A stretch of 64,000 nt of DNA from Perkinsela sp. CCAP 1560/9 (lineage: Eukaryota > Protista > Euglenozoa: Kinetoplastea). The position numbers and the translations under genes were made by a program. Location: NCBI GenBank assembly GCA_965644495.1, contig CBFFSA010000027.1, positions 1-64,000 on the forward strand, read 5' to 3'. Under the pieces are notes generated by a model. That model saw nothing but the letters and a program-made list of their open reading frames with translations, was not told the DNA's origin and did no database searches. Below are positions 196 through 64,000 of this stretch, piece by piece. Position 1 is the stretch's first letter, and each line of letters starts with the position of its first letter.

Positions 196-405
196 CTTTT
201 GTTAAGACCCTTTCTTTTGTTAAGACCCTTTCTTTTGTTAAGACCCTTTCTTTTGTTAAGACCCTTTCTTTTGTTAAGACCCTTTCTTTTGTTAAGACCC
301 TTTCTTTTGTTAAGACCCTTTCTTTTGTTAAGACCCTTTCTTTTGTTAAGACCCTTTCTTTTGTTAAGACCCTTTCTTTTGTTAAGACCCTTTCTTTTGT
401 TAAGA
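196..405. repeat. 18-bp tandem repeat type 1 (TTAAGACCCTTTCTTTTG)n, ~11.5 units
   Basis: Direct inspection. Confidence 0.97.
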
Positions 406-2760
406 GGGCACTAATCTGGTGGAGGAGGCCAGCGACGTGTAACTTCCTTTAGCACTTGTAGCTCGTAATATGTCGGCTTGGCGTGGTTCTTCCATCAATT
501 TGTCGCGTATGTATTTGTGGTGCAGGTCTTCTGTTGTTGGTTCATCAGCGGAAGGGTTATTATGATTTGGCTGAGTAGTTAGCTGTGTGGCCAAACCCGT
601 GCAAGGGGCGCGAGCTGAAAGATATATTGGTCGCTCCTTTGCCATTTGCTTGGATTTAGTATACGCTGCTTCCCTAATTGGTTCGGAAGGAGTGATACCT
701 AACCCGCCTTTCTTAAGAGGAAGCCGTGTCCATGAGATTTGTTTTTCTGTTAGTCCGCCAAACCATGAGGAAAGAGTGTTGGAAACTTCTCCGTCAAATT
801 GTCTCGTGAGCTCCGATGTATTTTCCGGATGATGTACGCGGATATGATATCGGTGGCGTACATTAATGCACTTGGAAAGCAAAAGAACAGAAACATTGTT
901 TGCCCCCATTTGCTGAAGACGTCGGAATGCTGTACGGTGTTTTTGAAGCATCTGAACGAGTTTTTCGCTGACCAGATGACTGTCGCCCACGAATGCTCCT
1001 AGAACCTTTGTGGCGCCTGGCTCCCAGTTTACACCTTCCTGCATTAACTGATGCGGCAAAGGGATATGATTGATTCCCCCGAACCAAATACATTTACTGG
1101 AGGAAGTCTCTACGCGTTTCGACGTCAACAGTTCCTTAAGCCGTAAGAATGCATTGGATACCATTTCTGCGTCAGTCGATGCAAAATTGATGTCATCAAC
1201 GAATGCATAAATACGTAGCGTGGGAAATTCGGACGCGATTGTTTCCAAGATTGGTTGAAGAAAAGCGCAGAACAAGATAGTGGATAAGGGGGACCCTTGG
1301 CGCACGCCAGCAGCGCTCATTACAGTGTTGCAAAGTCGGCCATCTTTTCCATAGTAAAGCAGCTCGGATGGAGACCCGTACTCCGCATTGAAGAGACGTA
1401 AGAATGGACGTAGGCTGTGGAATCCAAAGACTGCTCTGGCAATCTCGTCCCGTGATGGGGAGTTGAAGGCGTTCTTAAGGTCAATCGATAAGATGGCGCA
1501 TCCTTCCGCGTAGCGTTCATCAAGTTCCTGCACAACTTTTTCGCAGCCGGATTTAATCATCACTCCGAACTGATGTGGCGAAAACAGAGGGGGTAATGTT
1601 TTCTCGTGGCGCTGTAGTAATACAATTTCGGCGATTTTGAGCCACACCTCACCGACGGCAATCGGTCGAATTCCTTGCGCTGTTTTCGGAATTGCGACGA
1701 GTCGCGCTCTTTTAAGACGCTTCATTACTTCTTCAGGCAGTACCCCGTTGATCAGGTCTGTGAACATATGAGTTAAGCTCAAACAGCAAACCTCATCGTC
1801 CAGGAGAATACGTAGTATCGAGTCCGTCGTACCCGTAGGCCCCGGTGAAGCACCTTTCGCGAGTCGTCTGCCAGCCTCTCTCAGCTCGCTGGGGGTAATG
1901 CATGCGGTGATAGGGGCGTCTTGTGGCAATCGGAAACTCGTTGGGAGATTCGGGTGGAGTGCTATGAGTTTTTCCACGATTTCTTCGTCGCTTTGTGATT
2001 TCGCCGTAATTTCTCGGTCCATAATTTGCGAAGCTTTCGAGACACACCCGTCGAGGACCAGGCTTGTCGCCTTTTTAATAGCGCGTTTATCGTTCGCGTC
2101 AGCGTTCGGTACAGTTCCTTCTGATCTTTGTAATTCATGATTCTCTTGCGATGATTCTTGATCGTCATGTGAGTCCAATGGACGGCGACGGCGGCGCTTC
2201 ACCGTAACTTTTCGAATAGTTGCCAGAGAGTATTTCATGGCAGAGAGAACTCTATGCCAGATGCGGTAGCGGTGTGGATAAGAACTATCGGCATATTCCC
2301 GCATTATGTCGCGATAAATCGCAACGACGCAAGGAATATATTCTGGAGACACTGTGCGTAATGTCGGCATCGGTTCGCGATCGAGATCGTCCTCAGTATG
2401 TTGTCGGCGCGAGTACGTTTTACTCGGTTCGCTATTCTGTTGTACGCGCGGTTCCCACAACAGTCGAAAGATGCGAACGTTGGAATGAGGGGGAATATGC
2501 CCATCAAACACCTCACCAATATTGTGTCCAATGATGCCTTCGTAACTTAACGCTAGTTTTCGAACGTTTCGCACTTTCCGAGATGTTTTAACAGTGCCAC
2601 TCGATACGTTTAGGATGGGCGTGCAGTCAAAGCTCCATGCTACCAGGCACCGATCCCCTGGCTTCGCGTTGTGAGACAATCTGGATACTTCGTCCGGGGG
2701 AATGGGAAAGTGAACAGCAGGATCAATTTCTTGACACATGGAGTTGGCAAGAATTGTCAA
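400..2760 (-). CDS. Reverse transcriptase, CRE/SLACS-like, C-terminally truncated (A copy 1)
   Basis: Motifs GASPGPTG, RPIAVGE, IDLKNAFN, GVRQGSPLS, FVDD, KVLG, LPLKKGGLG; the stop codon is supplied by the repeat. Confidence 0.9.
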   Translation of the reverse strand: MTILANSMCQEIDPAVHFPIPPDEVSRLSHNAKPGDRCLVAWSFDCTPILNVSSGTVKTSRKVRNVRKLALSYEGIIGHNIGEVFDGHIPPHSNVRIFRLLWEPRVQQNSEPSKTYSRRQHTEDDLDREPMPTLRTVSPEYIPCVVAIYRDIMREYADSSYPHRYRIWHRVLSAMKYSLATIRKVTVKRRRRRPLDSHDDQESSQENHELQRSEGTVPNADANDKRAIKKATSLVLDGCVSKASQIMDREITAKSQSDEEIVEKLIALHPNLPTSFRLPQDAPITACITPSELREAGRRLAKGASPGPTGTTDSILRILLDDEVCCLSLTHMFTDLINGVLPEEVMKRLKRARLVAIPKTAQGIRPIAVGEVWLKIAEIVLLQRHEKTLPPLFSPHQFGVMIKSGCEKVVQELDERYAEGCAILSIDLKNAFNSPSRDEIARAVFGFHSLRPFLRLFNAEYGSPSELLYYGKDGRLCNTVMSAAGVRQGSPLSTILFCAFLQPILETIASEFPTLRIYAFVDDINFASTDAEMVSNAFLRLKELLTSKRVETSSSKCIWFGGINHIPLPHQLMQEGVNWEPGATKVLGAFVGDSHLVSEKLVQMLQKHRTAFRRLQQMGANNVSVLLLSKCINVRHRYHIRVHHPENTSELTRQFDGEVSNTLSSWFGGLTEKQISWTRLPLKKGGLGITPSEPIREAAYTKSKQMAKERPIYLSARAPCTGLATQLTTQPNHNNPSADEPTTEDLHHKYIRDKLMEEPRQADILRATSAKGSYTSLASSTRLVPS

Positions 2761-2909
2761 CGACTCACTCGAAGATAGTGCCAGCGTCTTTGCTGAAGCA
2801 GTGTCGTCAGCGTTTCCTTCGCAGTCGAAAAATTGTTCTGGTTCTTCACTGTCGTTATGGTTATTGTTTTCCGACGGCGGGTTCTCGTGGTGTCCTTCCT
2901 CTTCTGCAT

Positions 2910-3830
2910 CTATCTGCTAATTCCTCTATCTGCTAAAACTGGTGCGTTTACCGTCGCTTTCTTGCCGCGTCGACAAAAAAGGTTCGAAAACAGGTCCTTC
3001 GAAAACAATTTCGCGAGTATTTTAACCGTTGCTTTGTTCGCTGGAGTTGGCGGGGGGAGCGGTGGAGGGAGAAGTGGGGTATGCGGCTGGGGGGTATGAG
3101 ACTCAGTTGTGATACGCGACTCGATGACTTCCTCCGGAAGAGGCGACGTGTTACACGGCTCAGAAATTCTATGCGACTCGATGTCCTGTGCAGCGGGGAG
3201 TTTCGCTAGCCTTTCTTGGCGTAAAGCTTCGTGAAATTCCCAGCGAGCTTGTTTGCGCTCTTTTCTTTGGAGGTAGAATTCTTCGTCAGAAAGAATCCGA
3301 GCTGACGGATTTAGCGGCCGCAGAACTATATCATTGATCGGTACCTCTGCGTCTTCTTCTCTAACGGCACCGGCTCTGTGTGGCGATCTGGGGGCGGGGG
3401 AGCAGGAAAGCGCCTTAGCATAAGTAAGCGAAGTGTCAGTTGACGAAAGCTTTTCCACCCTTTGCATTTGTTTTAAGATAGGCGAGGGGTTATCGGATCT
3501 TAGCGACGTGTTAGCCCTCACCCGCGCTCTCCGGGATAACGTGTGCATGCTGGTACGTGGAGGTGGTGGCGAAAAGGGATGCGCAGGCGGCGGTGGCGGA
3601 CATGTTCTCATTTTACACCGTACGGATGCTGACGTTGATGGTGGTGATGGCGTCGTCGGCGGTGGCGGCCGTGGTGGTGATTGTTCGGGTGATTGTTCGA
3701 GCGGCGGGGGTGGTGACGGTGGTGGTTGTGGGGTGGGCTTCTCTTTCTTCTTCCGGCGTGTGGGGGGAAGCGACTGGACAATGGGAGCTACCCCGGCATC
3801 CTTCGCCTTGGCACGCGTCAGCATGCCCAT
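2910..3830 (-). CDS. Pro-rich N-terminal ORF of family A copy 1
   Basis: First ATG 27 nt after the SL remnant; VLRPLNPSA matches the N-terminus of the single ORF of family C. Confidence 0.7.
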   Translation of the reverse strand: MGMLTRAKAKDAGVAPIVQSLPPTRRKKKEKPTPQPPPSPPPPLEQSPEQSPPRPPPPTTPSPPSTSASVRCKMRTCPPPPPAHPFSPPPPRTSMHTLSRRARVRANTSLRSDNPSPILKQMQRVEKLSSTDTSLTYAKALSCSPAPRSPHRAGAVREEDAEVPINDIVLRPLNPSARILSDEEFYLQRKERKQARWEFHEALRQERLAKLPAAQDIESHRISEPCNTSPLPEEVIESRITTESHTPQPHTPLLPPPLPPPTPANKATVKILAKLFSKDLFSNLFCRRGKKATVNAPVLADRGISR

Positions 3831-3857
3831 TTTCGGAAAAAGAGTAGGAAAAAAAAA

Positions 3858-3872
3858 CAACAAGGTACAGAA
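3858..3872 (-). other. Spliced-leader 3' remnant TTCTGTACCTTGTTG (also 7786-7800, 11711-11725, 15657-15671, 20161-20175)
   Basis: Identical to the 3' end of the longer SL-like copies at 36081 and 57896. Confidence 0.85.
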
Positions 3873-3874
3873 GG

Positions 3875-4333
3875 TTGTTAAGACCCTTTCTTTTGTTAAG
3901 ACCCCTTCTATTGTTAAGACCCTTTCTTTTGTTAAGACCCTTTCTTTTGTTAAGACCCTTTCTTTTGTTAAGACCCTTTCTTTTGTTAAGACCCTTTCTT
4001 TTGTTATGACCCTTTCTTTTGTTAAGACCCTTTCTTTTGTTAAGACCCTTTCTTTTGTTAAGACCCTTTCTTTTGTTAAGACCCTTTCTTTTGTTAAGAC
4101 CCTTTCTTTTGTTAAGACCCTTTCTTTTGTTAAGACCCTTTCTTTTGTTAAGACCCTTTCTTTTGTTAAGACCCTTTCTTTTGTTAAGACCCTTTCTTTT
4201 GTTAAGACCCTTTCTTTTGTTAAGACCCTTTCTTTTGTTAAGACCCTTTCTTTTGTTAAGACCCTTTCTTTTGTTAAGACCCTTTCTTTTGTTAAGACCC
4301 TTTCTTTTGTTAAGACCCTTTCTTTTGTTAAGA
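3875..4333. repeat. Type 1 18-bp repeat, ~25.5 units
   Basis: Direct inspection. Confidence 0.97.
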
Positions 4334-6688
4334 GGGCACTAATCTGGTGGAGGAGGCCAGCGACGTGTAACTTCCTTTAGCACTTGTAGCTCGTAATATG
4401 TCGGCTTGGCGTGGTTCTTCCATCAATTTGTCGCGTATGTATTTGTGGTGCAGGTCTTCTGTTGTTGGTTCATCGGCGGAAGGGTTATTATGATTTGGCT
4501 GAGTAGTTAGCTGTGTGGCCAAACCCGTGCAAGGGGCGGGAGCTGAAAGATATATTGGTCGCTCCGTTGCCATTTGCTTGGATTTAGTATACGCTGCTTC
4601 CCTAATTGGTTCGGAAGGAGTGATACCTAACCCGCCTTTCTTAAGAGGAAGCCGTGTCCATGAGATTTGTTTTTCTGTTAGTCCGCCAAACCATGAGGAA
4701 AGAGTGTTGGAAACTTCTCCGTCAAATTGTCTCGTGAGCTCCGATGTATTTTCCGGATGATGTACGCGGATATGATATCGGTGGCGTACATTAATGCACT
4801 TGGAAAGCAAAAGAACAGAAACATTGTTTGCCCCCATTTGCTGAAGACGTCGGAATGCTGTACGGTGTTTTTGAAGCATCTGAACGAGTTTTTCGCTGAC
4901 CAGATGACTGTCGCCCACGAATGCTCCTAGAACCTTTGTGGCGCCTGGCTCCCAGTTTACACCTTCCTGCATTAACTGATGCGGCAAAGGGATATGATTG
5001 ATTCCCCCGAACCAAATACATTTACTGGAGGAAGTCTCTACGCGTTTCGACGTCAACAGTTCCTTAAGCCGTAAGAATGCATTGGATACCATTTCTGCGT
5101 CAGTCGATGCAAAATTGATGTCATCAACGAATGCATAAATACGTAGCGTGGGAAATTCGGACGCGATTGTTTCCAAGATTGGTTGAAGAAAAGCGCAGAA
5201 CAAGATAGTGGATAAGGGGGACCCTTGGCGCACGCCAGCAGCGCTCATTACAGTGTTGCAAAGTCGGCCATCTTTTCCATAGTAAAGCAGCTCGGATGGA
5301 GACCCGTACTCCGCATTGAAGAGACGTAAGAATGGACGTAGGCTGTGGAATCCAAAGACTGCTCTGGCAATCTCGTCCCGTGATGGGGAGTTGAAGGCGT
5401 TCTTAAGGTCAATCGATAAGATGGCGCATCCTTCCGCGTAGCGTTCATCAAGTTCCTGCACAACTTTTTCGCAGCCGGATTTAATCATCACTCCGAACTG
5501 ATGTGGCGAAAACAGAGGGGGTAATGTTTTCTCGTGGCGCTGTAGTAATACAATTTCGGCGATTTTGAGCCACACCTCACCGACGGCAATCGGTCGAATT
5601 CCTTGCGCTGTTTTCGGAATTGCGACGAGTCGCGCTCTTTTAAGACGCTTCATTACTTCTTCAGGCAGTACCCCGTTGATCAGGTCTGTGAACATATGAG
5701 TTAAGCTCAAACAGCAAACCTCATCGTCCAGGAGAATACGTAGTATCGAGTCCGTCGTACCCGTAGGCCCCGGTGAAGCACCTTTCGCGAGTCGTCTGCC
5801 AGCCTCTCTCAGCTCGCTGGGGGTAATGCATGCGGTGATAGGGGCGTCTTGTGGCAATCGGAAACTCGTTGGGAGATTCGGGTGGAGTGCTATGAGTTTT
5901 TCCACGATTTCTTCGTCGCTTTGTGATTTCGCCGTAATTTCTCGGTCCATAATTTGCGAAGCTTTCGAGACACACCCGTCGAGGACCAGGCTTGTCGCCT
6001 TTTTAATAGCGCGTTTATCGTTCGCGTCAGCGTTCGGTACAGTTCCTTCTGATCTTTGTAATTCATGATTCTCTTGCGATGATTCTTGATCGTCATGTGA
6101 GTCCAATGGACGGCGACGGCGGCGCTTCACCGTAACTTTTCGAATAGTTGCCAGAGAGTATTTCATGGCAGAGAGAACTCTATGCCAGATGCGGTAGCGG
6201 TGTGGATAAGAACTATCGGCATATTCCCGCATTATGTCGCGATAAATCGCAACGACGCAAGGAATATATTCTGGAGACACTGTGCGTAATGTCGGCATCG
6301 GTTCGCGATCGAGATCGTCCTCAGTATGTTGTCGGCGCGAGTACGTTTTACTCGGTTCGCTATTCTGTTGTACGCGCGGTTCCCACAACAGTCGAAAGAT
6401 GCGAACGTTGGAATGAGGGGGAATATGCCCATCAAACACCTCACCAATATTGTGTCCAATGATGCCTTCGTAACTTAACGCTAGTTTTCGAACGTTTCGC
6501 ACTTTCCGAGATGTTTTAACAGTGCCACTCGATACGTTTAGGATGGGCGTGCAGTCAAAGCTCCATGCTACCAGGCACCGATCCCCTGGCTTCGCGTTGT
6601 GAGACAATCTGGATACTTCGTCCGGGGGAATGGGAAAGTGAACAGCAGGATCAATTTCTTGACACATGGAGTTGGCAAGAATTGTCAA
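4328..6688 (-). CDS. Reverse transcriptase, truncated (A copy 2)
   Basis: As copy 1. Confidence 0.9.
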   Translation of the reverse strand: MTILANSMCQEIDPAVHFPIPPDEVSRLSHNAKPGDRCLVAWSFDCTPILNVSSGTVKTSRKVRNVRKLALSYEGIIGHNIGEVFDGHIPPHSNVRIFRLLWEPRVQQNSEPSKTYSRRQHTEDDLDREPMPTLRTVSPEYIPCVVAIYRDIMREYADSSYPHRYRIWHRVLSAMKYSLATIRKVTVKRRRRRPLDSHDDQESSQENHELQRSEGTVPNADANDKRAIKKATSLVLDGCVSKASQIMDREITAKSQSDEEIVEKLIALHPNLPTSFRLPQDAPITACITPSELREAGRRLAKGASPGPTGTTDSILRILLDDEVCCLSLTHMFTDLINGVLPEEVMKRLKRARLVAIPKTAQGIRPIAVGEVWLKIAEIVLLQRHEKTLPPLFSPHQFGVMIKSGCEKVVQELDERYAEGCAILSIDLKNAFNSPSRDEIARAVFGFHSLRPFLRLFNAEYGSPSELLYYGKDGRLCNTVMSAAGVRQGSPLSTILFCAFLQPILETIASEFPTLRIYAFVDDINFASTDAEMVSNAFLRLKELLTSKRVETSSSKCIWFGGINHIPLPHQLMQEGVNWEPGATKVLGAFVGDSHLVSEKLVQMLQKHRTAFRRLQQMGANNVSVLLLSKCINVRHRYHIRVHHPENTSELTRQFDGEVSNTLSSWFGGLTEKQISWTRLPLKKGGLGITPSEPIREAAYTKSKQMATERPIYLSAPAPCTGLATQLTTQPNHNNPSADEPTTEDLHHKYIRDKLMEEPRQADILRATSAKGSYTSLASSTRLVPS

Positions 6689-7800
6689 CGACTCACTCGA
6701 AGATAGTGCCAGCGTCTTTGCTGAAGCAGTGTCGTCAGCGTTTCCTTCGCAGTCGAAAAATTGTTCTGGTTCTTCACTGTCGTTATGGTTATTGTTTTCC
6801 GACGGCGGGTTCTCGTGGTGTCCTTCCTCTTCTGCATCTATCTGCTAATTCCTCTATCTGCTAAAACTGGTGCGTTTACCGTCGCTTTCTTGCCGCGTCG
6901 ACAAAAAAGGTTCGAAAACAGGTCCTTCGAAAACAATTTCGCGAGTATTTTAACCGTTGCTTTGTTCGCTGGAGTTGGCGGGGGGAGCGGTGGAGGGAGA
7001 AGTGGGGTATGCGGCTGGGGGGTATGAGACTCAGTTGTGATACGCGACTCGATGACTTCCTCCGGAAGAGGCGACGTGTTACACGGCTCAGAAATTCTAT
7101 GCGACTCGATGTCCTGTGCAGCGGGGAGTTTCGCTAGCCTTTCTTGGCGTAAAGCTTCGTGAAATTCCCAGCGAGCTTGTTTGCGCTCTTTTCTTTGGAG
7201 GTAGAATTCTTCGTCAGAAAGAATCCGAGCTGACGGATTTAGCGGCCGCAGAACTATATCATTGATCGGTACCTCTGCGTCTTCTTCTCTAACGGCACCG
7301 GCTCTGTGTGGCGATCTGGGGGCGGGGGAGCAGGAAAGCGCCTTAGCATAAGTAAGCGAAGTGTCAGTTGACGAAAGCTTTTCCACCCTTTGCATTTGTT
7401 TTAAGATAGGCGAGGGGTTATCGGATCTTAGCGACGTGTTAGCCCTCACCCGCGCTCTCCGGGATAACGTGTGCATGCTGGTACGTGGAGGTGGTGGCGA
7501 AAAGGGATGCGCAGGCGGCGGTGGCGGACATGTTCTCATTTTACACCGTACGGATGCTGACGTTGATGGTGGTGATGGCGTCGTCGGCGGTGGCGGCCGT
7601 GGTGGTGATTGTTCGGGTGATTGTTCGAGCGGCGGGGGTGGTGACGGTGGTGGTTGTGGGGTGGGCTTCTCTTTCTTCTTCCGGCGTGTGGGGGGAAGCG
7701 ACTGGACAATGGGAGCTACCCCGGCATCCTTCGCCTTGGCACGCGTCAGCATGCCCATTTTCGGAAAAAGAGTAGGAAAAAAAAACAACAAGGTACAGAA
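4334..7800 (-). mobile_element. Family A copy 2
   Basis: Near-identical to copy 1, offset 3928 bp. Confidence 0.92.
6838..7758 (-). CDS. Pro-rich N-terminal ORF (A copy 2)
   Basis: As copy 1. Confidence 0.7.
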   Translation of the reverse strand: MGMLTRAKAKDAGVAPIVQSLPPTRRKKKEKPTPQPPPSPPPPLEQSPEQSPPRPPPPTTPSPPSTSASVRCKMRTCPPPPPAHPFSPPPPRTSMHTLSRRARVRANTSLRSDNPSPILKQMQRVEKLSSTDTSLTYAKALSCSPAPRSPHRAGAVREEDAEVPINDIVLRPLNPSARILSDEEFYLQRKERKQARWEFHEALRQERLAKLPAAQDIESHRISEPCNTSPLPEEVIESRITTESHTPQPHTPLLPPPLPPPTPANKATVKILAKLFSKDLFSNLFCRRGKKATVNAPVLADRGISR

Positions 7801-7802
7801 GG

Positions 7803-8261
7803 TTGTTAAGACCCTTTCTTTTGTTAAGACCCCTTCTATTGTTAAGACCCTTTCTTTTGTTAAGACCCTTTCTTTTGTTAAGACCCTTTCTTTTGTTAAG
7901 ACCCTTTCTTTTGTTAAGACCCTTTCTTTTGTTATGACCCTTTCTTTTGTTAAGACCCTTTCTTTTGTTAAGACCCTTTCTTTTGTTAAGACCCTTTCTT
8001 TTGTTAAGACCCTTTCTTTTGTTAAGACCCTTTCTTTTGTTAAGACCCTTTCTTTTGTTAAGACCCTTTCTTTTGTTAAGACCCTTTCTTTTGTTAAGAC
8101 CCTTTCTTTTGTTAAGACCCTTTCTTTTGTTAAGACCCTTTCTTTTGTTAAGACCCTTTCTTTTGTTAAGACCCTTTCTTTTGTTAAGACCCTTTCTTTT
8201 GTTAAGACCCTTTCTTTTGTTAAGACCCTTTCTTTTGTTAAGACCCTTTCTTTTGTTAAGA
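7803..8261. repeat. Type 1 18-bp repeat, ~25.5 units
   Basis: Direct inspection. Confidence 0.97.
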
Positions 8262-10616
8262 GGGCACTAATCTGGTGGAGGAGGCCAGCGACGTGTAACT
8301 TCCTTTAGCACTTGTAGCTCGTAATATGTCGGCTTGGCGTGGTTCTTCCATCAATTTGTCGCGTATGTATTTGTGGTGCAGGTCTTCTGTTGTTGGTTCA
8401 TCGGCGGAAGGGTTATTATGATTTGGCTGAGTAGTTAGCTGTGTGGCCAAACCCGTGCAAGGGGCGGGAGCTGAAAGATATATTGGTCGCTCCGTTGCCA
8501 TTTGCTTGGATTTAGTATACGCTGCTTCCCTAATTGGTTCGGAAGGAGTGATACCTAACCCGCCTTTCTTAAGAGGAAGCCGTGTCCATGAGATTTGTTT
8601 TTCTGTTAGTCCGCCAAACCATGAGGAAAGAGTGTTGGAAACTTCTCCGTCAAATTGTCTCGTGAGCTCCGATGTATTTTCCGGATGATGTACGCGGATA
8701 TGATATCGGTGGCGTACATTAATGCACTTGGAAAGCAAAAGAACAGAAACATTGTTTGCCCCCATTTGCTGAAGACGTCGGAATGCTGTACGGTGTTTTT
8801 GAAGCATCTGAACGAGTTTTTCGCTGACCAGATGACTGTCGCCCACGAATGCTCCTAGAACCTTTGTGGCGCCTGGCTCCCAGTTTACACCTTCCTGCAT
8901 TAACTGATGCGGCAAAGGGATATGATTGATTCCCCCGAACCAAATACATTTACTGGAGGAAGTCTCTACGCGTTTCGACGTCAACAGTTCCTTAAGCCGT
9001 AAGAATGCATTGGATACCATTTCTGCGTCAGTCGATGCAAAATTGATGTCATCAACGAATGCATAAATACGTAGCGTGGGAAATTCGGACGCGATTGTTT
9101 CCAAGATTGGTTGAAGAAAAGCGCAGAACAAGATAGTGGATAAGGGGGACCCTTGGCGCACGCCAGCAGCGCTCATTACAGTGTTGCAAAGTCGGCCATC
9201 TTTTCCATAGTAAAGCAGCTCGGATGGAGACCCGTACTCCGCATTGAAGAGACGTAAGAATGGACGTAGGCTGTGGAATCCAAAGACTGCTCTGGCAATC
9301 TCGTCCCGTGATGGGGAGTTGAAGGCGTTCTTAAGGTCAATCGATAAGATGGCGCATCCTTCCGCGTAGCGTTCATCAAGTTCCTGCACAACTTTTTCGC
9401 AGCCGGATTTAATCATCACTCCGAACTGATGTGGCGAAAACAGAGGGGGTAATGTTTTCTCGTGGCGCTGTAGTAATACAATTTCGGCGATTTTGAGCCA
9501 CACCTCACCGACGGCAATCGGTCGAATTCCTTGCGCTGTTTTCGGAATTGCGACGAGTCGCGCTCTTTTAAGACGCTTCATTACTTCTTCAGGCAGTACC
9601 CCGTTGATCAGGTCTGTGAACATATGAGTTAAGCTCAAACAGCAAACCTCATCGTCCAGGAGAATACGTAGTATCGAGTCCGTCGTACCCGTAGGCCCCG
9701 GTGAAGCACCTTTCGCGAGTCGTCTGCCAGCCTCTCTCAGCTCGCTGGGGGTAATGCATGCGGTGATAGGGGCGTCTTGTGGCAATCGGAAACTCGTTGG
9801 GAGATTCGGGTGGAGTGCTATGAGTTTTTCCACGATTTCTTCGTCGCTTTGTGATTTCGCCGTAATTTCTCGGTCCATAATTTGCGAAGCTTTCGAGACA
9901 CACCCGTCGAGGACCAGGCTTGTCGCCTTTTTAATAGCGCGTTTATCGTTCGCGTCAGCGTTCGGTACAGTTCCTTCTGATCTTTGTAATTCATGATTCT
10001 CTTGCGATGATTCTTGATCGTCATGTGAGTCCAATGGACGGCGACGGCGGCGCTTCACCGTAACTTTTCGAATAGTTGCCAGAGAGTATTTCATGGCAGA
10101 GAGAACTCTATGCCAGATGCGGTAGCGGTGTGGATAAGAACTATCGGCATATTCCCGCATTATGTCGCGATAAATCGCAACGACGCAAGGAATATATTCT
10201 GGAGACACTGTGCGTAATGTCGGCATCGGTTCGCGATCGAGATCGTCCTCAGTATGTTGTCGGCGCGAGTACGTTTTACTCGGTTCGCTATTCTGTTGTA
10301 CGCGCGGTTCCCACAACAGTCGAAAGATGCGAACGTTGGAATGAGGGGGAATATGCCCATCAAACACCTCACCAATATTGTGTCCAATGATGCCTTCGTA
10401 ACTTAACGCTAGTTTTCGAACGTTTCGCACTTTCCGAGATGTTTTAACAGTGCCACTCGATACGTTTAGGATGGGCGTGCAGTCAAAGCTCCATGCTACC
10501 AGGCACCGATCCCCTGGCTTCGCGTTGTGAGACAATCTGGATACTTCGTCCGGGGGAATGGGAAAGTGAACAGCAGGATCAATTTCTTGACACATGGAGT
10601 TGGCAAGAATTGTCAA
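8256..10616 (-). CDS. Reverse transcriptase, truncated (A copy 3)
   Basis: As copy 1. Confidence 0.9.
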   Translation of the reverse strand: MTILANSMCQEIDPAVHFPIPPDEVSRLSHNAKPGDRCLVAWSFDCTPILNVSSGTVKTSRKVRNVRKLALSYEGIIGHNIGEVFDGHIPPHSNVRIFRLLWEPRVQQNSEPSKTYSRRQHTEDDLDREPMPTLRTVSPEYIPCVVAIYRDIMREYADSSYPHRYRIWHRVLSAMKYSLATIRKVTVKRRRRRPLDSHDDQESSQENHELQRSEGTVPNADANDKRAIKKATSLVLDGCVSKASQIMDREITAKSQSDEEIVEKLIALHPNLPTSFRLPQDAPITACITPSELREAGRRLAKGASPGPTGTTDSILRILLDDEVCCLSLTHMFTDLINGVLPEEVMKRLKRARLVAIPKTAQGIRPIAVGEVWLKIAEIVLLQRHEKTLPPLFSPHQFGVMIKSGCEKVVQELDERYAEGCAILSIDLKNAFNSPSRDEIARAVFGFHSLRPFLRLFNAEYGSPSELLYYGKDGRLCNTVMSAAGVRQGSPLSTILFCAFLQPILETIASEFPTLRIYAFVDDINFASTDAEMVSNAFLRLKELLTSKRVETSSSKCIWFGGINHIPLPHQLMQEGVNWEPGATKVLGAFVGDSHLVSEKLVQMLQKHRTAFRRLQQMGANNVSVLLLSKCINVRHRYHIRVHHPENTSELTRQFDGEVSNTLSSWFGGLTEKQISWTRLPLKKGGLGITPSEPIREAAYTKSKQMATERPIYLSAPAPCTGLATQLTTQPNHNNPSADEPTTEDLHHKYIRDKLMEEPRQADILRATSAKGSYTSLASSTRLVPS

Positions 10617-11725
10617 CGACTCACTCGAAGATAGTGCCAGCGTCTTTGCTGAAGCAGTGTCGTCAGCGTTTCCTTCGCAGTCGAAAAATTGTTCTGGTTC
10701 TTCACTGTCGTTATGGTTATTGTTTTCCGACGGCGGGTTCTCGTGGTGTCCTTCCTCTTCTGCATCTATCTGCTAATTCCTCTATCTGCTAAAACTGGTG
10801 CGTTTACCGTCGCTTTCTTGCCGCGTCGACAAAAAAGGTTCGAAAACAGGTCCTTCGAAAACAATTTCGCGAGTATTTTAACCGTTGCTTTGTTCGCTGG
10901 AGTTGGCGGGGGGAGCGGTGGAGGGAGAAGTGGGGTATGCGGCTGGGGGGTATGAGACTCAGTTGTGATACGCGACTCGATGACTTCCTCCGGAAGAGGC
11001 GACGTGTTACACGGCTCAGAAATTCTATGCGACTCGATGTCCTGTGCAGCGGGGAGTTTCGCTAGCCTTTCTTGGCGTAAAGCTTCGTGAAATTCCCAGC
11101 GAGCTTGTTTGCGCTCTTTTCTTTGGAGGTAGAATTCTTCGTCAGAAAGAATCCGAGCTGACGGATTTAGCGGCCGCAGAACTATATCATTGATCGGTAC
11201 CTCTGCGTCTTCTTCTCTAACGGCACCGGCTCTGTGTGGCGATCTGGGGGCGGGGGAGCAGGAAAGCGCCTTAGCATAAGTAAGCGAAGTGTCAGTTGAC
11301 GAAAGCTTTTCCACCCTTTGCATTTGTTTTAAGATAGGCGAGGGGTTATCGGATCTTAGCGACGTGTTAGCCCTCACCCGCGCTCTCCGGGATAACGTGT
11401 GCATGCTGGTACGTGGAGGTGGTGGCGAAAAGGGATGCGCAGGCGGCGGTGGCGGACATGTTCTCATTTTACACCGTACGGATGCTGACGTTGGTGGTGA
11501 TGGCGTCGTCGGCGGTGGCGGCCGTGGTGGTGATTGTTCGGGTGATTGTTCGAGCGGCGGGGGTGGTGACGGTGGTGGTTGTGGGGTGGGCTTCTCTTTC
11601 TTCTTCCGGCGTGTGGGGGGAAGCGACTGGACAATGGGAGCTACCCCGGCATCCTTCGCCTTGGCACGCGTCAGCATGCCCATTTTCGGAAAAAGAGTAG
11701 GAAAAAAAAACAACAAGGTACAGAA
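8262..11725 (-). mobile_element. Family A copy 3
   Basis: Near-identical; 3-bp deletion in the Pro-rich ORF. Confidence 0.92.
10766..11683 (-). CDS. Pro-rich N-terminal ORF (A copy 3)
   Basis: As copy 1. Confidence 0.7.
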   Translation of the reverse strand: MGMLTRAKAKDAGVAPIVQSLPPTRRKKKEKPTPQPPPSPPPPLEQSPEQSPPRPPPPTTPSPPTSASVRCKMRTCPPPPPAHPFSPPPPRTSMHTLSRRARVRANTSLRSDNPSPILKQMQRVEKLSSTDTSLTYAKALSCSPAPRSPHRAGAVREEDAEVPINDIVLRPLNPSARILSDEEFYLQRKERKQARWEFHEALRQERLAKLPAAQDIESHRISEPCNTSPLPEEVIESRITTESHTPQPHTPLLPPPLPPPTPANKATVKILAKLFSKDLFSNLFCRRGKKATVNAPVLADRGISR

Positions 11726-11727
11726 GG

Positions 11728-12204
11728 TTGTTAAGACCCTTTCTTTTGTTAAGACCCCTTCTATTGTTAAGACCCTTTCTTTTGTTAAGACCCTTTCTTT
11801 TGTTAAGACCCTTTCTTTTGTTAAGACCCTTTCTTTTGTTAAGACCCTTTCTTTTGTTATGACCCTTTCTTTTGTTAAGACCCTTTCTTTTGTTAAGACC
11901 CTTTCTTTTGTTAAGACCCTTTCTTTTGTTAAGACCCTTTCTTTTGTTAAGACCCTTTCTTTTGTTAAGACCCTTTCTTTTGTTAAGACCCTTTCTTTTG
12001 TTAAGACCCTTTCTTTTGTTAAGACCCTTTCTTTTGTTAAGACCCTTTCTTTTGTTAAGACCCTTTCTTTTGTTAAGACCCTTTCTTTTGTTAAGACCCT
12101 TTCTTTTGTTAAGACCCTTTCTTTTGTTAAGACCCTTTCTTTTGTTAAGACCCTTTCTTTTGTTAAGACCCTTTCTTTTGTTAAGACCCTTTCTTTTGTT
12201 AAGA
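11728..12204. repeat. Type 1 18-bp repeat, ~26.5 units
   Basis: Direct inspection. Confidence 0.97.
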
Positions 12205-14559
12205 GGGCACTAATCTGGTGGAGGAGGCCAGCGACATGTAACTTCCTTTAGCACTTGTAGCTCGTAATATGTCGGCTTGGCGTGGTTCTTCCATCAATTT
12301 GTCGCGTATGTATTTGTGGTGCAGGTCTTCTGTTGTTGGTTCATCGGCGGAAGGGTTATTATGATTTGGCTGAGTAGTTAGCTGTGTGGCCAAACCCGTG
12401 CAAGGGGCGGGAGCTGAAAGATATATTGGTCGCTCCTTTGCCATTTGCTTGGATTTAGTATACGCTGCTTCCCTAATTGGTTCGGAAGGAGTGATACCTA
12501 ACCCGCCTTTCTTAAGAGGAAGCCGTGTCCATGAGATTTGTTTTTCTGTTAGTCCGCCAAACCATGAGGAAAGAGTGTTGGAAACTTCTCCGTCAAATTG
12601 TCTCGTGAGCTCCGATGTATTTTCCGGATGATGTACGCGGATATGATATCGGTGGCGTACATTAATGCACTTGGAAAGCAAAAGAACAGAAACATTGTTT
12701 GCCCCCATTTGCTGAAGACGTCGGAATGCTGTACGGTGTTTTTGAAGCATCTGAACGAGTTTTTCGCTGACCAGATGACTGTCGCCCACGAATGCTCCTA
12801 GAACCTTTGTGGCGCCTGGCTCCCAGTTTACACCTTCCTGCATTAACTGATGCGGCAAAGGGATATGATTGATTCCCCCGAACCAAATACATTTACTGGA
12901 GGAAGTCTCTACGCGTTTCGACGTCAACAGTTCCTTAAGCCGTAAGAATGCATTGGATACCATTTCTGCGTCAGTCGATGCAAAATTGATGTCATCAACG
13001 AATGCATAAATACGTAGCGTGGGAAATTCGGACGCGATTGTTTCCAAGATTGGTTGAAGAAAAGCGCAGAACAAGATAGTGGATAAGGGGGACCCTTGGC
13101 GCACGCCAGCAGCGCTCATTACAGTGTTGCAAAGTCGGCCATCTTTTCCATAGTAAAGCAGCTCGGATGGAGACCCGTACTCCGCATTGAAGAGACGTAA
13201 GAATGGACGTAGGCTGTGGAATCCAAAGACTGCTCTGGCAATCTCGTCCCGTGATGGGGAGTTGAAGGCGTTCTTAAGGTCAATCGATAAGATGGCGCAT
13301 CCTTCCGCGTAGCGTTCATCAAGTTCCTGCACAACTTTTTCGCAGCCGGATTTAATCATCACTCCGAACTGATGTGGCGAAAACAGAGGGGGTAATGTTT
13401 TCTCGTGGCGCTGTAGTAATACAATTTCGGCGATTTTGAGCCACACCTCACCGACGGCAATCGGTCGAATTCCTTGCGCTGTTTTCGGAATTGCGACGAG
13501 TCGCGCTCTTTTAAGACGCTTCATTACTTCTTCAGGCAGTACCCCGTTGATCAGGTCTGTGAACATATGAGTTAAGCTCAAACAGCAAACCTCATCGTCC
13601 AGGAGAATACGTAGTATCGAGTCCGTCGTACCCGTAGGCCCCGGTGAAGCACCTTTCGCGAGTCGTCTGCCAGCCTCTCTCAGCTCGCTGGGGGTAATGC
13701 ATGCGGTGATAGGGGCGTCTTGTGGCAATCGGAAACTCGTTGGGAGATTCGGGTGGAGTGCTATGAGTTTTTCCACGATTTCTTCGTCGCTTTGTGATTT
13801 CGCCGTAATTTCTCGGTCCATAATTTGCGAAGCTTTCGAGACACACCCGTCGAGGACCAGGCTTGTCGCCTTTTTAATAGCGCGTTTATCGTTCGCGTCA
13901 GCGTTCGGTACAGTTCCTTCTGATCTTTGTAATTCATGATTCTCTTGCGATGATTCTTGATCGTCATGTGAGTCCAATGGACGGCGACGGCGGCGCTTCA
14001 CCGTAACTTTTCGAATAGTTGCCAGAGAGTATTTCATGGCAGAGAGAACTCTATGCCAGATGCGGTAGCGGTGTGGATAAGAACTATCGGCATATTCCCG
14101 CATTATGTCGCGATAAATCGCAACGACGCAAGGAATATATTCTGGAGACACTGTGCGTAATGTCGGCATCGGTTCGCGATCGAGATCGTCCTCAGTATGT
14201 TGTCGGCGCGAGTACGTTTTACTCGGTTCGCTATTCTGTTGTACGCGCGGTTCCCACAACAGTCGAAAGATGCGAACGTTGGAATGAGGGGGAATATGCC
14301 CATCAAACACCTCACCAATATTGTGTCCAATGATGCCTTCGTAACTTAACGCTAGTTTTCGAACGTTTCGCACTTTCCGAGATGTTTTAACAGTGCCACT
14401 CGATACGTTTAGGATGGGCGTGCAGTCAAAGCTCCATGCTACCAGGCACCGATCCCCTGGCTTCGCGTTGTGAGACAATCTGGATACTTCGTCCGGGGGA
14501 ATGGGAAAGTGAACAGCAGGATCAATTTCTTGACACATGGAGTTGGCAAGAATTGTCAA
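12199..14559 (-). CDS. Reverse transcriptase, truncated (A copy 4)
   Basis: As copy 1. Confidence 0.9.
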   Translation of the reverse strand: MTILANSMCQEIDPAVHFPIPPDEVSRLSHNAKPGDRCLVAWSFDCTPILNVSSGTVKTSRKVRNVRKLALSYEGIIGHNIGEVFDGHIPPHSNVRIFRLLWEPRVQQNSEPSKTYSRRQHTEDDLDREPMPTLRTVSPEYIPCVVAIYRDIMREYADSSYPHRYRIWHRVLSAMKYSLATIRKVTVKRRRRRPLDSHDDQESSQENHELQRSEGTVPNADANDKRAIKKATSLVLDGCVSKASQIMDREITAKSQSDEEIVEKLIALHPNLPTSFRLPQDAPITACITPSELREAGRRLAKGASPGPTGTTDSILRILLDDEVCCLSLTHMFTDLINGVLPEEVMKRLKRARLVAIPKTAQGIRPIAVGEVWLKIAEIVLLQRHEKTLPPLFSPHQFGVMIKSGCEKVVQELDERYAEGCAILSIDLKNAFNSPSRDEIARAVFGFHSLRPFLRLFNAEYGSPSELLYYGKDGRLCNTVMSAAGVRQGSPLSTILFCAFLQPILETIASEFPTLRIYAFVDDINFASTDAEMVSNAFLRLKELLTSKRVETSSSKCIWFGGINHIPLPHQLMQEGVNWEPGATKVLGAFVGDSHLVSEKLVQMLQKHRTAFRRLQQMGANNVSVLLLSKCINVRHRYHIRVHHPENTSELTRQFDGEVSNTLSSWFGGLTEKQISWTRLPLKKGGLGITPSEPIREAAYTKSKQMAKERPIYLSAPAPCTGLATQLTTQPNHNNPSADEPTTEDLHHKYIRDKLMEEPRQADILRATSAKGSYMSLASSTRLVPS

Positions 14560-15671
14560 CGACTCACTCGAAGATAGTGCCAGCGTCTTTGCTGAAGCAG
14601 TGTCGTCAGCGTTTCCTTCGCAGTCGAAAAATTGTTCTGGTTCTTCACTGTCGTTATGGTTATTGTTTTCCGACGGCGGGTTCTCGTGGTGTCCTTCCTC
14701 TTCTGCATCTATCTGCTAATTCCTCTATCTGCTAAAACTGGTGCGTTTACCGTCGCTTTCTTGCCGCGTCGACAAAAAAGGTTCGAAAACAGGTCCTTCG
14801 AAAACAATTTCGCGGGTATTTTAACCGTTGCTTTGTTCGCTGGAGTTGGCGGGGGGAGCGGTGGAGGGAGAAGTGGGGTATGCGGCTGGGGGGTATGAGA
14901 CTCAGTTGTGATACGCGACTCGATGACTTCCTCCGGAAGAGGCGACGTGTTACACGGCTCAGAAATTCTATGCGACTCGATGTCCTGTGCAGAGGGGAGT
15001 TTCGCTAGCCTTTCTTGGCGTAAAGCTTCGTGAAATTCCCAGCGAGCTTGTTTGCGCTCTTTTCTTTGGAGGTAGAATTCTTCGTCAGAAAGAATCCGAG
15101 CTGACGGATTTAGCGGCCGCAGAACTATATCATTGATCGGTACCTCTGCGTCTTCTTCTCTAACGGCACCGGCTCTGTGTGGCGATCTGGGGGCGGGGGA
15201 GCAGGAAAGCGCCTTAGCATAAGTAAGCGAAGTGTCAGTTGACGAAAGCTTTTCCACCCTTTGCATTTGTTTTAAGATAGGCGAGGGGTTATCGGATCTT
15301 AGCGACGTGTTAGCCCTCACCCGCGCTCTCCGGGATAACGTGTGCATGCTGGTACGTGGAGGTGGTGGCGAAAAGGGATGCGCAGGCGGCGGTGGCGGAC
15401 ATGTTCTCATTTTACACCGTACGGATGCTGACGTTGATGGTGGTGATGGCGTCGTCGGCGGTGGCGGCCGTGGTGGTGATTGTTCGGGTGATTGTTCGAG
15501 CGGCGGGGGTGGTGACGGTGGTGGTTGTGGGGTGGGCTTCTCTTTCTTCTTCCGGCGTGTGGGGGGAGGCGACTGGACAATGGGAGCTACCCCGGCATCC
15601 TTCGCCTTGGCACGCGTCAGCATGCCCATTTTCGGAAAAAGAGTAGGAAAAAAAAACAACAAGGTACAGAA
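12205..15671 (-). mobile_element. Family A copy 4
   Basis: Near-identical with a few SNPs. Confidence 0.92.
14709..15629 (-). CDS. Pro-rich N-terminal ORF (A copy 4)
   Basis: As copy 1; the longer ORF call is read-in from the repeat. Confidence 0.7.
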   Translation of the reverse strand: MGMLTRAKAKDAGVAPIVQSPPPTRRKKKEKPTPQPPPSPPPPLEQSPEQSPPRPPPPTTPSPPSTSASVRCKMRTCPPPPPAHPFSPPPPRTSMHTLSRRARVRANTSLRSDNPSPILKQMQRVEKLSSTDTSLTYAKALSCSPAPRSPHRAGAVREEDAEVPINDIVLRPLNPSARILSDEEFYLQRKERKQARWEFHEALRQERLAKLPSAQDIESHRISEPCNTSPLPEEVIESRITTESHTPQPHTPLLPPPLPPPTPANKATVKIPAKLFSKDLFSNLFCRRGKKATVNAPVLADRGISR

Positions 15672-15673
15672 GG

Positions 15674-16708
15674 TTGTTAAGACCCTTTCTTTTGTTAAGA
15701 CCCCTTCTATTGTTAAGACCCTTTCTTTTGTTAAGACCCTTTCTTTTGTTAAGACCCTTTCTTTTGTTAACACCCTTTCTTTTGTTAAGACCCTTTCTTT
15801 TGTTAAGACCCTTTCTTTTGTTAACACCCTTTCTTTTGTTAAGACCCTTTCTTTTGTTAAGACCCTTTCTTTTGTTAAGACCCTTTCTTTTGTTAAGACC
15901 CTTTCTTTTGTTAAGACCCTTTCTTTTGTTAAGACCCTTTCTTTTGTTAAGACCCTTTCTTTTGTTAAGACCCTTTCTTTTGTTAAGACCCTTTCTTTTG
16001 TTAAGACCCTTTCTTTTGTTAAGACCCTTTCCTTTGTTAAGACCCTTTCTTTTGTTAAGACCTTTTCTTTTTTTAAGACCCTTTCTTTTTTTAAGACCCT
16101 TTCTTTTGTTAAGACCCTTTCTTTTGTTAAGACCCTTTCTTTTGTTAAGACCCTTTCTTTTGTTAAGACCCTTTCTTTTGTTAAGACCCTTTCTTTTGTT
16201 AAGACCCTTTCTTTTGTGAAGACCCTTTCTTTTGTTAAGACCCTTTCTTTTGTTAAGACCCTTTCTTTTGTTAAGACCCTTTCTTTTGTTAAGACCCTTT
16301 CTTTTGTTAAGACCCTTTCTTTTGTTAAGACCCTTTCTTTTGTTAAGACCCTTTCTTTTGTTAAGACCCTTTCTTTTGTTAAGACCCTTTCTTTTGTTAA
16401 GACCCTTTCTTTTGTTAAGACCCTTTCTTTTGTTAAGACCCTTTCTTTTGTTAAGACCCTTTCTTTTGTTAAGACCCTTTCTTTTGTTAAGACCCTTTCT
16501 TTTGTTAAGACCCTTTCTTTTGTTAAGACCCTTTCTTTTGTTAAGACCCTTTCTTTTGTTAAGACCCTTTCTTTTGTTAAGACCCTTTCTTTTGTTAAGA
16601 CCCTTTCTTTTGTTAAGACCCTTTCTTTTGTTAAGACCCTTTCTTTTGTTAAGACCCTTTCTTTTGTTAAGACCCTTTCTTTTGTTAAGACCCTTTCTTT
16701 TGTTAAGA
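15674..16708. repeat. Type 1 18-bp repeat, ~57.5 units
   Basis: Direct inspection. Confidence 0.97.
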
Positions 16709-20175: not shown

Positions 20176-20203
20176 GGTTGTTAAGACCCTTTCTTTTGTT
20201 AAG

Positions 20204-30926: not shown

Positions 30927-30927
30927 C

Positions 30928-32055: not shown

Positions 32056-32058
32056 CCC

Positions 32059-46119: not shown

Positions 46120-46211
46120 TAATAAACAAAAAGGGGGTAATAAACAAAAAGGGGGTAATAAACAAAAAGGGGGTAATAAACAAAAAGGGGGTAATAAACA
46201 AAAAGGGGGTA
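46120..46211. repeat. Type 2 18-bp repeat, ~5 units
   Basis: Direct inspection. Confidence 0.95.
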
Positions 46212-46283
46212 GAACATAAACTTGATGTCATTTTTTTTGGTACGTAACGTGCGGTAGGTTCAAGGTTCTCCCTTAAGCCTTCA

Positions 46284-58277: not shown

Positions 58278-58305
58278 ATAAAAATCCTTTTATGACTAAA
58301 ATATC

Positions 58306-63041: not shown

Positions 63042-63473
63042 TTACATATAGCGGCTTTTCTTCACAAAAATGGGGGCATTCGTCAGTCTACCCCGTGATG
63101 TCTTGTACTGAGAAAACGTTACTGGATCCCCGGTATTAGCTTCTGGGTTGAGTGAACGAGCAATCCTGACTGTGCTGCCTTCTTCTGTATTTTTCAGTTT
63201 CCCTTTTTTCATATTCACTTTGTGTGGAGATTTTTCTTGGAGATCATGCTCCCTTTTTTGACCGTGATTAGATTTGTTTCCCTCCCTTTGCGTGTGAATG
63301 ACGCATGAAAAACGACGTGCAGCTGTTCTCTGTGCTTTGCGTGCTATTTCATCAGCTTTTTCATTGAAGGAATTCCCGCAGTGTGCCCGCACTTTAATAA
63401 CGTAGAGACTACTATCTGTACAACGCTCTTTAATTGCTCCTTGTATCTGCGTGAGTAGGTCAGCATTTGGCAT
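63042..63473 (-). pseudogene. RNase H (type I) C-terminal fragment
   Basis: NADLL..I....KVRAHCGNSFNEKADEIAR; the N-terminal catalytic residues are missing, replaced by the repeat. Confidence 0.7.
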
Positions 63474-63536
63474 GCCACCGTATCCAATGATTGAAAAACG
63501 AACCCTAACATTATGATACCAGTCCCATACATAATG

Positions 63537-64000
63537 AGATCAAGTTTTTTGTAAGATCAAGTTTTTTGTAAGATCAAGTTTTTTGTAAGATCAAGTTTTT
63601 TGTAAGATCAAGTTTTTTGTAAGATCAAGTTTTTTGTAAGATCAAGTTTTTTGTAAGATCAAGTTTTTTGTAAGATCAAGTTTTTTGTAAGATCAAGTTT
63701 TTTGTAAGATCAAGTTTTTTGTAAGATCAAGTTTTTTGTAAGATCAAGTTTTTTGTAAGATCAAGTTTTTTGTAAGATCAAGTTTTTTGTAAGATCAAGT
63801 TTTTTGTAAGATCAAGTTTTTTGTAAGATCAAGTTTTTTGTAAGATCAAGTTTTTTGTAAGATCAAGTTTTTTGTAAGATCAAGTTTTTTGTAAGATCAA
63901 GTTTTTTGTAAGATCAAGTTTTTTGTAAGATCAAGTTTTTTGTAAGATCAAGTTTTTTGTAAGATCAAGTTTTTTGTAAGATCAAGTTTTTTGTAAGATC
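63537..64000. repeat. 17-bp tandem repeat type 3 (AGATCAAGTTTTTTGTA)n, >27 units, runs off the window
   Basis: Direct inspection. Confidence 0.97.

Follow-up and report, generated by a model that had tools for sequence, protein, structure and literature searches.

Tandem 17–18-bp repeats of Perkinsela are retroelement 5′ ends, possibly multiplied by a LINE reverse transcriptase

Three 17–18-bp repeats in a 64,000-nucleotide stretch of the Perkinsela sp. CCAP 1560/9 genome (hereafter the window) are the 5′-terminal 17–19 nt of three different retroelement families. The repeats are real, yet they are not telomerase products, and the three are a sample from at least 24 related units of this genome. 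From the genomic sequences, we consider it probable (roughly 60%) that a LINE reverse transcriptase (RT) writes the arrays by jumping back about 18 nt after run-off, with growth at the DNA level coming later.

Three repeats and their parent elements

An earlier note on this DNA had described three distinct but related 17–18-bp repeats, sharing an ACAAAA core and lying at element junctions, and this description was borne out. Exact copies numbered 185 for type 1 and 27 for type 3, both with the purine strand on the minus strand, and 104 for type 2, with the purine strand on the plus strand; no opposite-strand exact copies of any type were found in the window. Type 2 is indeed reversed relative to the others, as had been claimed, but this merely reflects the strand of its SINE. 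TRF detected 11 arrays (identity 98–100%). ACAAAA is present in all three units, which have 9–12 of 18 positions in common in element register, and all window arrays adjoin element ends; one or two further units stand near 20178 and near 32059, and the window also has a type-1-like variant, at 26336 and at 37150. TTAGGGTTAGGG was absent from the window in an exact-copy search, in agreement with the earlier statement that none of the repeats is TTAGGG, and the suggested kinetoplastid host was confirmed by a spliced-leader (SL) RNA gene with a GT intron start.

The type-3 array is not a long-read artefact, because short-read contigs are also enriched for its unit, at ~70–500× the depth of the element body in four short-read runs from one study, possibly of the same sample as the assembly. 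With the unit carried at high depth in these contigs, an assembly artefact was rejected for type 3; the type-2 unit was likewise enriched in two of three DNA-like short-read runs.

Type 2 belongs to a 662-nt structured SINE (29388–30049; fold z = −4.7), which with its poly(A) tail occupies 29378..30049 on the minus strand and whose 5′ end is one type-2 unit. This SINE has 47 matches in the genome, 13 of them near full length, with poly(A) and target-site duplications (TSDs). Its own TSD, AACATAAACTT, adjoins the poly(A) tail at 29367..29377 (plus strand) and recurs at 46213..46223 (plus strand), the two copies enclosing the SINE and all type-2 pieces. These pieces, all on the minus strand, are a proximal one of 49 units fused to the SINE 5′ end (30050..30926), a second of 49 units (36113..37001) adjoined by the full SL of a CRE-like element (36081–36112), a third of nine units (38842..39004), which meets a 5′-truncated CRE-like element over a 4-nt microhomology, and a distal one of five units (46120..46211). 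Inside the array lies a non-coding, unstranded element (30925..32058), bounded by terminal inverted repeats and accompanied by an 8-bp duplication, ACAAAAAG. The window's four type-2 arrays originated as a single array that later insertions broke up. Type 2 is also not the 3′ tail of CRE-like elements, a reading excluded by the two TSD copies at 29367 and 46213. Among 13 SINE copies, seven have a TSD abutting the distal array end and six have none abutting. No 5′ arrays were found on diverged SINE relatives (20 loci), nor was an autonomous partner; pattern searches gave 51 matches, of which 30 were retrieved and 14 inspected, and revealed no LINE with type 2.

Type 1 heads a LINE subfamily that is sister to the type-3 LINE and located elsewhere in the genome; its parent LINE outside the window is L216 (G000:C22:5670). 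The unit, GACCCTTTCTTTTGTTAA in element sense, forms an array of 11.7 units at 196..405 (plus strand; TRF and exact copies). Beyond it, five near-identical 3.47-kb copies of a 3′-truncated CRE-like RT element with a 5′ SL remnant (406..20177, minus strand) alternate with type-1 arrays at 3875–4333, 7803–8261, 11728–12204 and 15674–16708. Because these arrays have common variants at the same unit index, the 406..20177 block is a DNA-level tandem duplication. Another array of 84 units (24410..25923, plus strand) has its variants in blocks and SL remnants on both sides. A TSD was looked for at the window's type-1 arrays and was not found. The SL gene and the type-1 parent LINE rule out type 1 as a spliced-leader remnant.

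The LINE that type 3 heads lies just beyond the window; it is full-length, encodes APE, RT and RNase H in that order and ends in (GGATT)n. The type-3 array occupies 63537..64000 (plus strand) and continues to C27:68978, reaching about 318 units; the 20 closest to the element measure 18 nt and almost all the rest 17 nt. The insertion split an older LINE, whose RNase H end lies at 63042..63539 (minus strand) and whose RT part picks up again after C27:73291; the TSD of the type-3 LINE, ATACATAATGAGA, is found at 63527..63539 (plus strand) and again at C27:73279, directly after the LINE tail.

The proposed tie between arrays and retroelement ends also holds in a genome survey. Sixty LINE loci were examined, 53 of them with an intact 5′ end; arrays of 2 to ~450 units were found on 44 of these 53 copies and a single unit only on nine. 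The 24 LINE representatives yield 24 units, with a period of 18 in 21, 17 in two and 19 in one. These LINEs carry the domains PF03372, PF00078 and PF00075 in the order APE-RT-RNase H, have TSDs of 8–18 nt and end in (GGATT)n, (GGATA)n, (GT)n, (GTT)n or (TTGG)n, poly(A) being found only on the SINE; with APE and RT in one ORF, a 3′ tail and a TSD, the LINE is an APE-type non-LTR retrotransposon. The arrays sit within the insertion's TSD. Of 26 visibly tailed copies, 15 have a match to the tail-adjacent TSD ≤30 nt from the far end of the array, and the other 11 have no abutting TSD; in no copy did a match lie where the array meets the element. This tail-anchored test supersedes a looser one (own pairs 16/43 vs cross pairs 96/1806). 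The two best metagenomic relatives also have 5′ arrays, of 18- and 19-mers, with the same pairings. Because the relative L271 has a 19-mer array without RNase H, the idea of the element's own RNase H as an obligatory 18-nt ruler is weakened, and this domain is not the required ruler.

A predicted ribozyme at the array boundary

HDV-like ribozymes have nested helices P1, P1.1, P2, P3 and P4, a G at +1 and a C in J4/2. The LINE 5′ end is predicted to fit this consensus, with the unit beginning at base 1 of the putative ribozyme and the helices covarying with the unit. In 21 of 24 representatives, helix P1 begins where one array period ends and the next starts, a boundary that was fixed from the DNA sequence alone. 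With anchors that are regular expressions composed after the sequences were seen, P1 shows 117/144 WC pairs, vs 80.4 (maximum 102) for shuffled partners, the shuffles ignoring relatedness, and 28–44 in shifted registers. Pairing was seen at 68/69 positions of P3 and 122/138 of P2; P1′ is followed by GG or GT in 24/24, the first pair is G-C in 21/21, and a C stands at J4/2 position 2 in 23/23 parsed rows, two of these being mis-anchored. P4 was recognised by eye only, and the unit ends at the top of a hairpin arm. Because the region is also coding, some of its conservation is protein-driven. The fold requires an atypical insertion of ~45 nt in L3, and Rfam gave no HDV-family match on a LINE 5′ end and nothing in 19000–64000. 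In the SINE, a P1 partner with GG behind it was looked for and not found, and the type-2 unit begins with T.

How the arrays may be written

We propose that the ribozyme would cut the LINE RNA just before the first base of the unit, and that an 18-nt 5′ fragment with a weak U-rich hybrid would be released, through a cut in the hairpin loop or the action of an RNase H. The LINE RT would run off the ribozyme-cut end and return by about 18 bases, repeating this step tens to hundreds of times through end-to-end template jumping on this fragment, all before the insertion is sealed. The SINE would use the LINE machinery in trans, and old arrays would lengthen by DNA-level duplication, in blocks of up to 35 kb, and gather later insertions. 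In vitro, non-LTR RTs have been firmly shown to jump between templates; a point against the proposal is that, for the R2 RT, the usual non-templated A overhang is described as non-productive for jumping (PMC8857657).

DNA-level amplification itself is clear from a duplicated block in L133, from 3.9-kb tandem units and from higher-order structure in L092, at the C1 end and in a 35-kb C4 block, and it could account for most array length. One alternative, which we consider possible but unlikely, is that the RT adds no more than one or two 5′ units at insertion, as occasionally happens with R2, and that replication slippage, recombination or break-induced replication expands them later; the block duplications and higher-order repeats in several arrays fit such expansion, as do the 35-kb block on C4 and one of at least 33 kb on C35, and in R2 the ribozyme cut is known to determine how long the 5′ duplications are (PMC3774820). 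Against this, LINE copies that are 98.7–99.6% identical bear 4, 45, ~318 and ~450 units, so that near-identical young copies vary 100-fold; two arrays, of 249 and 194 units, are free of variants, many variants are unshared singletons, and arrays head 44/53 intact copies across 24 units, yet the 3′ microsatellite tails are short.

The long arrays are not inherited, because internal variants are not common at the same index between sister arrays (six groups). This observation also counts against the least probable alternative, in which the ribozyme pairs with an upstream unit and daughters keep part of the parent array through the RNA: the P1 strand is present in every unit and upstream cleavage has been proposed for R2 duplications (PMC3774820), but such inheritance offers no source of array growth.

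Unit length can switch abruptly and lastingly, from 18-mers near the element to 17-mers farther out in three type-3 insertions and from 18 to 19 in the L179 array, a pattern that counts in favour of the main proposal. Such switches, and the very long uniform runs, would also be accounted for if the 18-nt fragment, with a 5′-OH left by the ribozyme and a cyclic phosphate from the loop cut, were closed by ligation to a tiny RNA circle and copied by rolling circle. We regard this as improbable: a circle of 18 nt offers an RT very little room, and an extra G or T at unit junctions in three arrays favours, weakly, end-to-end jumps. Variants fell at unit junctions in 47 of 115 events, a figure inflated by repeated counting and homopolymer error.

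The earlier note had inferred several paralogous template RNAs for telomerase. That each repeat has its own RNA template stands, but the reading of these templates as telomerase RNAs found no support: the candidate locus 29388–30049 is a dispersed, multicopy, poly(A)-tailed and TSD-flanked SINE and was ruled out on this ground, and the search of its 15 closest and 20 diverged homologues found 0 with type-1 or type-3 unit heads. Template loci for types 1 and 3 do exist, as the 5′ ends of protein-coding LINEs; no arrays matching the SINE's internal CTAACCCTA 9-mer were found. Arrays of 17–18-mers occupy only three of 69 inspected contig ends (two purine-out, one reversed), the others being internal, while a 10-mer is found at 6/69. 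The TTAGGG premise fails here, with 0 matches to (TTAGGG)4 genome-wide, and the 10-mer is likely the telomere of this kinetoplastid. It is very improbable that host telomerase, with these or paralogous RNAs, adds the repeats at retrotransposition breaks. The lack of TTAGGG arrays, the two contig ends with the purine strand outward and the orphan arrays that meet unrelated DNA over 3–4-nt microhomologies would suit it; however, the templates are coding-LINE 5′ ends matching whichever element they precede, most units have no alignment repeat, and the separate 10-mer behaves as a telomere. Two Pfam models, uncontrolled for sensitivity to kinetoplastid TERT, also revealed no TERT, PF12009 giving one weak match (an exportin-like protein) and PF21399 none.

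Known systems and implications

In published descriptions (PMC4035085, PMC3820030, PMC12278014), the ingi/L1Tc elements resemble the present LINEs in their APE-RT-RNase H ORF, 5′ HDV-like ribozyme and TSD near 12 bp and, with RIME/NARTc/SIDER, in having a short non-autonomous partner and a kinetoplastid (trypanosomatid) host. The tails are poly(A) there and microsatellite here, the ribozyme is a 76–79-nt signature there and spans 130–250 nt of coding sequence here, and SIDER2 bears two 77-nt signatures vs tens to hundreds of 18-mers. A word-based search, which is weak evidence, found no named ingi among 72 homologues. RTE-like LINEs have a single ORF, a 3′ microsatellite tail, a 5′ HDV-like ribozyme and DUF6451 after the RT. 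The LINE has the single ORF and the microsatellite tail, and L172 has a weak DUF6451 match (E 4e-5, under the cut-off); an RNase H is atypical for that group, and the tree contained no named references.

The R2 duplications described in PMC3774820 likewise start at the P1 cleavage site, measure 13–26 nt and arise at insertion; what R2 duplicates, however, is 28S target sequence, in most cases a single time and often in few of the copies, whereas in the present elements it is their own 5′ end that recurs, up to ~450 times, and most copies are affected. DRT2 (PMC12039810) and DRT10 (10.1101/2025.10.16.682844) are reported to turn an RNA segment with structural boundaries into tandem cDNA of kilobase length, and the LINE RT may be similarly processive, judging from its genomic products. 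The bacterial systems, as described, use a UG-class RT, a separate ncRNA (with an A-B-A alignment pattern in DRT10) and free cDNA in an antiviral role, in contrast to an eukaryotic non-LTR RT with an APE domain, the element's own mRNA end as template and an integrated product. As with telomerase, a short RNA template would be recopied onto a DNA 3′ end with synthesis of the purine-rich strand; unlike telomerase, the RT is of another class, at least 24 templates serve mainly internal sites, usually without an alignment region, and the arrays are bounded by TSDs. No comparable system was found in searches of freely accessible papers.

Short-template repeat addition has been regarded as a speciality of telomerase and of a few RTs in bacterial defence, and retrotransposon RTs to copy their own mRNA once (10.1101/2025.10.16.682844). 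We lean, by a little, towards the broader view that in a LINE clade of at least three organisms the RT produces, processively and at the majority of insertions, kilobases of tandem DNA from the ribozyme-defined first 18 nt of its own RNA, and that the products seed new satellites and now and then cap chromosome ends. If true, telomerase and the bacterial DRTs would be joined by a third kind of RT that writes repeats, and these LINEs would be a living model of the transition from retrotransposon to telomerase. Such a LINE would also offer a direct, testable path to de novo satellite DNA, represented here by 24 units and by blocks that reach 35 kb, together with a natural template series for learning what fixes repeat boundaries and possibly a programmable repeat writer. 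The likely 10-mer telomere, instead of TTAGGG, in a kinetoplastid is a second surprise. Even if the RT made the first duplication alone, each satellite would be traceable to a named element and an RNA-defined boundary.

Retroelement families behind the arrays

Examination of the assembly (21 Mb in 110 contigs, with the window at the beginning of contig C27) confirmed the three repeat units and the strands described in the earlier note; the units form 11 arrays. The window consists of nested non-LTR reverse transcriptase (RT) elements, which are CRE-like for the most part (RT, zinc knuckle and restriction-like endonuclease motifs). The assembly contains a spliced leader (SL) RNA gene whose intron starts with GT, and elements bear remnants of the SL at their 5' ends; together these show a kinetoplastid host. 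SL-capped CRE-like elements land again and again in the arrays (window 406-46119; loci L124, L172, L214 and L216), often with the SL end adjoining them, and the type-3 unit is similar to the middle of the SL exon; there may be a target preference. One CRE-like element carries, in its 5' part, 11 in-frame copies of a 153-bp tandem repeat (56119-57827). A non-coding element that has terminal inverted repeats together with an 8-bp duplication was observed at window 30925-32058, in L122/L237, at L220:2837-3781 and L221:6417-7424, and also after a type-1 array, and IS1595/Merlin-type transposases are present in the assembly. Since DNA transposons are reported absent from trypanosomatids (PMC12278014), the host may lie outside that group.

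Beyond the window the type-3 array extends for another 5 kb; it leads into an APE-RT-RNase H ORF of 1359 aa, and this LINE has a (GGATT)n tail. Array and LINE together lie between the two copies of a 13-nt duplication, at 63527 and C27:73279, and the target split by this insertion is an older LINE. In the type-1 parent (L216/L172), 14 units precede the same set of 5' motifs, after which come a CRE-like insertion and an APE-RT-RNase H ORF. An APE search gave 153 matches, from which 60 loci were taken across the similarity range, favouring matches that reach the N-terminus; 44 carried their own 5' array of at least two units, nine had a single unit, and seven had an unrecognisable 5' end. Twenty-four representative LINEs had 24 different units, which track the protein tree loosely. 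Among 26 copies with a visible tail, a target-site duplication (TSD) lay no more than 30 nt from the distal end of the array in 15 (12 of them carrying 5 to ~450 units, three a single unit); two others matched 160-180 nt further out, one had a 7-nt match within the element, and eight had none. A TSD between array and element was found in none of the 26 (the position for L149 comes from a separate TSD test).

Type 2 heads a SINE at 29388-30049 (47 matches in the assembly, 13 near full length), which, read on the minus strand, ends in poly(A) and folds strongly (z = -4.7). The opposite orientation noted for type 2 is simply the strand of the SINE. Of the 13 near-full copies, 12 have a type-2 unit or a variant of it as their 5' end (single in nine; 4, 49+ and 78 units in three), and seven have a 9-12-nt duplication that adjoins the tail and, on the other side, the outer limit of the unit or array. 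In the window copy this duplication lies at 29367 and 46213, indicating that the four type-2 arrays of the window are a single array split by later insertions. A copy truncated at base 342 (L041/L262; G000:C17:34676, C10:41283) still bears a variant type-2 array on its cut 5' end, which suggests repeat addition in trans. A second dispersed non-coding family, with ~70% identity to the SINE body (L067-L069, L074, L076, L078, L079, L082, L083), differs in its 5' part and lacks arrays.

A predicted ribozyme at the unit boundary

The first six bases of the LINE unit pair with a hexamer ~90-140 nt downstream, followed by GG. The unit boundary, taken from periodicity alone, coincided with the start of this helix (P1) in 21 of 24 elements; two exceptions overran by 1-2 nt and one had a variant last unit. 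P1 showed 117 of 144 Watson-Crick pairs, versus 80.4 with shuffled partners and 28-44 in shifted registers, and two further helices covaried (P3, 68/69; P2, 122/138; 23 of 24 rows parsed, two mis-anchored rows retained). A C precedes the last strand of the fold. This is the layout of the HDV-like consensus, with an insertion in loop L3; an Rfam search gave no match. Pairing also joins the final 8 nt of the unit to an inverted copy that follows after a few bases (7-8 of 8 positions in 17 of 20 rows listed), and the unit spans a run of 3-8 U; it thus extends from the predicted cut as far as the top of the first hairpin. HDV-like ribozymes cut the 5' ends of ingi-clade and R2 elements (PMC4035085, PMC3774820).

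Telomeres and contig ends

The earlier note proposed several paralogous template RNAs for the repeats, and gave TTAGGG as the product of kinetoplastid telomerase. The arrays are real, yet not telomerase products, and (TTAGGG)4 is absent genome-wide. Inspection of 69 contig ends (37 starts, 32 ends) revealed (AGAGGAAGAA)n in telomere orientation at six (right of C8, C16 and C23; left of C21, C28 and C8), joined to unrelated DNA (L051, L059, L226, L352, L358, L008), in one case behind an inverted variant (first 1 kb of C8). The 10-mer AGAGGAAGAA is likely the true telomere. The 17-18-mer arrays occurred at just three of the 69 ends: C22, with its LINE attached; C5, reversed; and C1, where degenerate copies of a type-3 sister unit form a 7.4-kb array that reaches the contig end with its purine strand outward (G000:C1:4127935-4135367; L368, L044) and no parent LINE alongside. 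TERT was not detected with two Pfam models, which may miss kinetoplastid TERT. Two contig starts, and also a dispersed unit of ~950 bp, contain C-rich 12-13-mer arrays (CCCCCCCTGGA type; L006, L009, L011, L014, L047).

Array growth and relatives

LINE copies 98.7-99.6% identical carry from 4 to ~450 units; arrays of 249 and 194 units contain zero variants, and sister arrays compared by unit index share no internal variants. In three type-3 insertions, the 18-mers beside the element number 20, ~15 and 134 and give way to 17-mers farther out, and in L179 18-mers change to 19-mers; these switches fit outward synthesis with the template 3' end changing once. A duplicated block in L133, higher-order structure in old arrays and blocks as long as 35 kb count against a purely RT origin; the main rival is that one duplication was enlarged by DNA-level growth. 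We infer, with a probability of about 0.6, that the RT would reiterate the unit when the element inserts, and that DNA-level growth would then lengthen the arrays. Template jumping by R2 RT is established in vitro (PMC8857657), and DRT2 and DRT10 produce tandem cDNA (PMC12039810; 10.1101/2025.10.16.682844).

The best two of 80 metagenomic loci start with similar arrays (L270, 5.9 x 18 nt; L271, 6.5 x 19 nt), which precede the ORF in sense orientation and, as judged by eye, have a P1 partner that matches; no such array was found in the other 78, many of which have no 5' end. Both fall within one RT clade with the Perkinsela elements (support 0.99; FastTree, midpoint root), and L271 has no RNase H. 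A metagenomic 17-mer array at L301:9157-9213, with G first and AA at the end, precedes a hairpin and apparently non-coding DNA, and is possibly another such element.

No LINE with reiterated 5'-terminal units was found in the largely open-access literature searched, and a description may exist in Repbase or a subscription journal; the nearest reports are of R2 5' duplications (PMC3774820) and of the SIDER2 double signature (PMC4035085, PMC3820030, PMC12278014). Satellite blocks built of type-1 units, 33-35 kb long and showing higher-order structure (G000:C4:678000-712600, C35:29800-64900+), are candidates for centromeric or heterochromatic DNA. Overall, these LINEs make up an unclassified clade, and their 5' ends seed satellites, likely through telomerase-like repeat synthesis.
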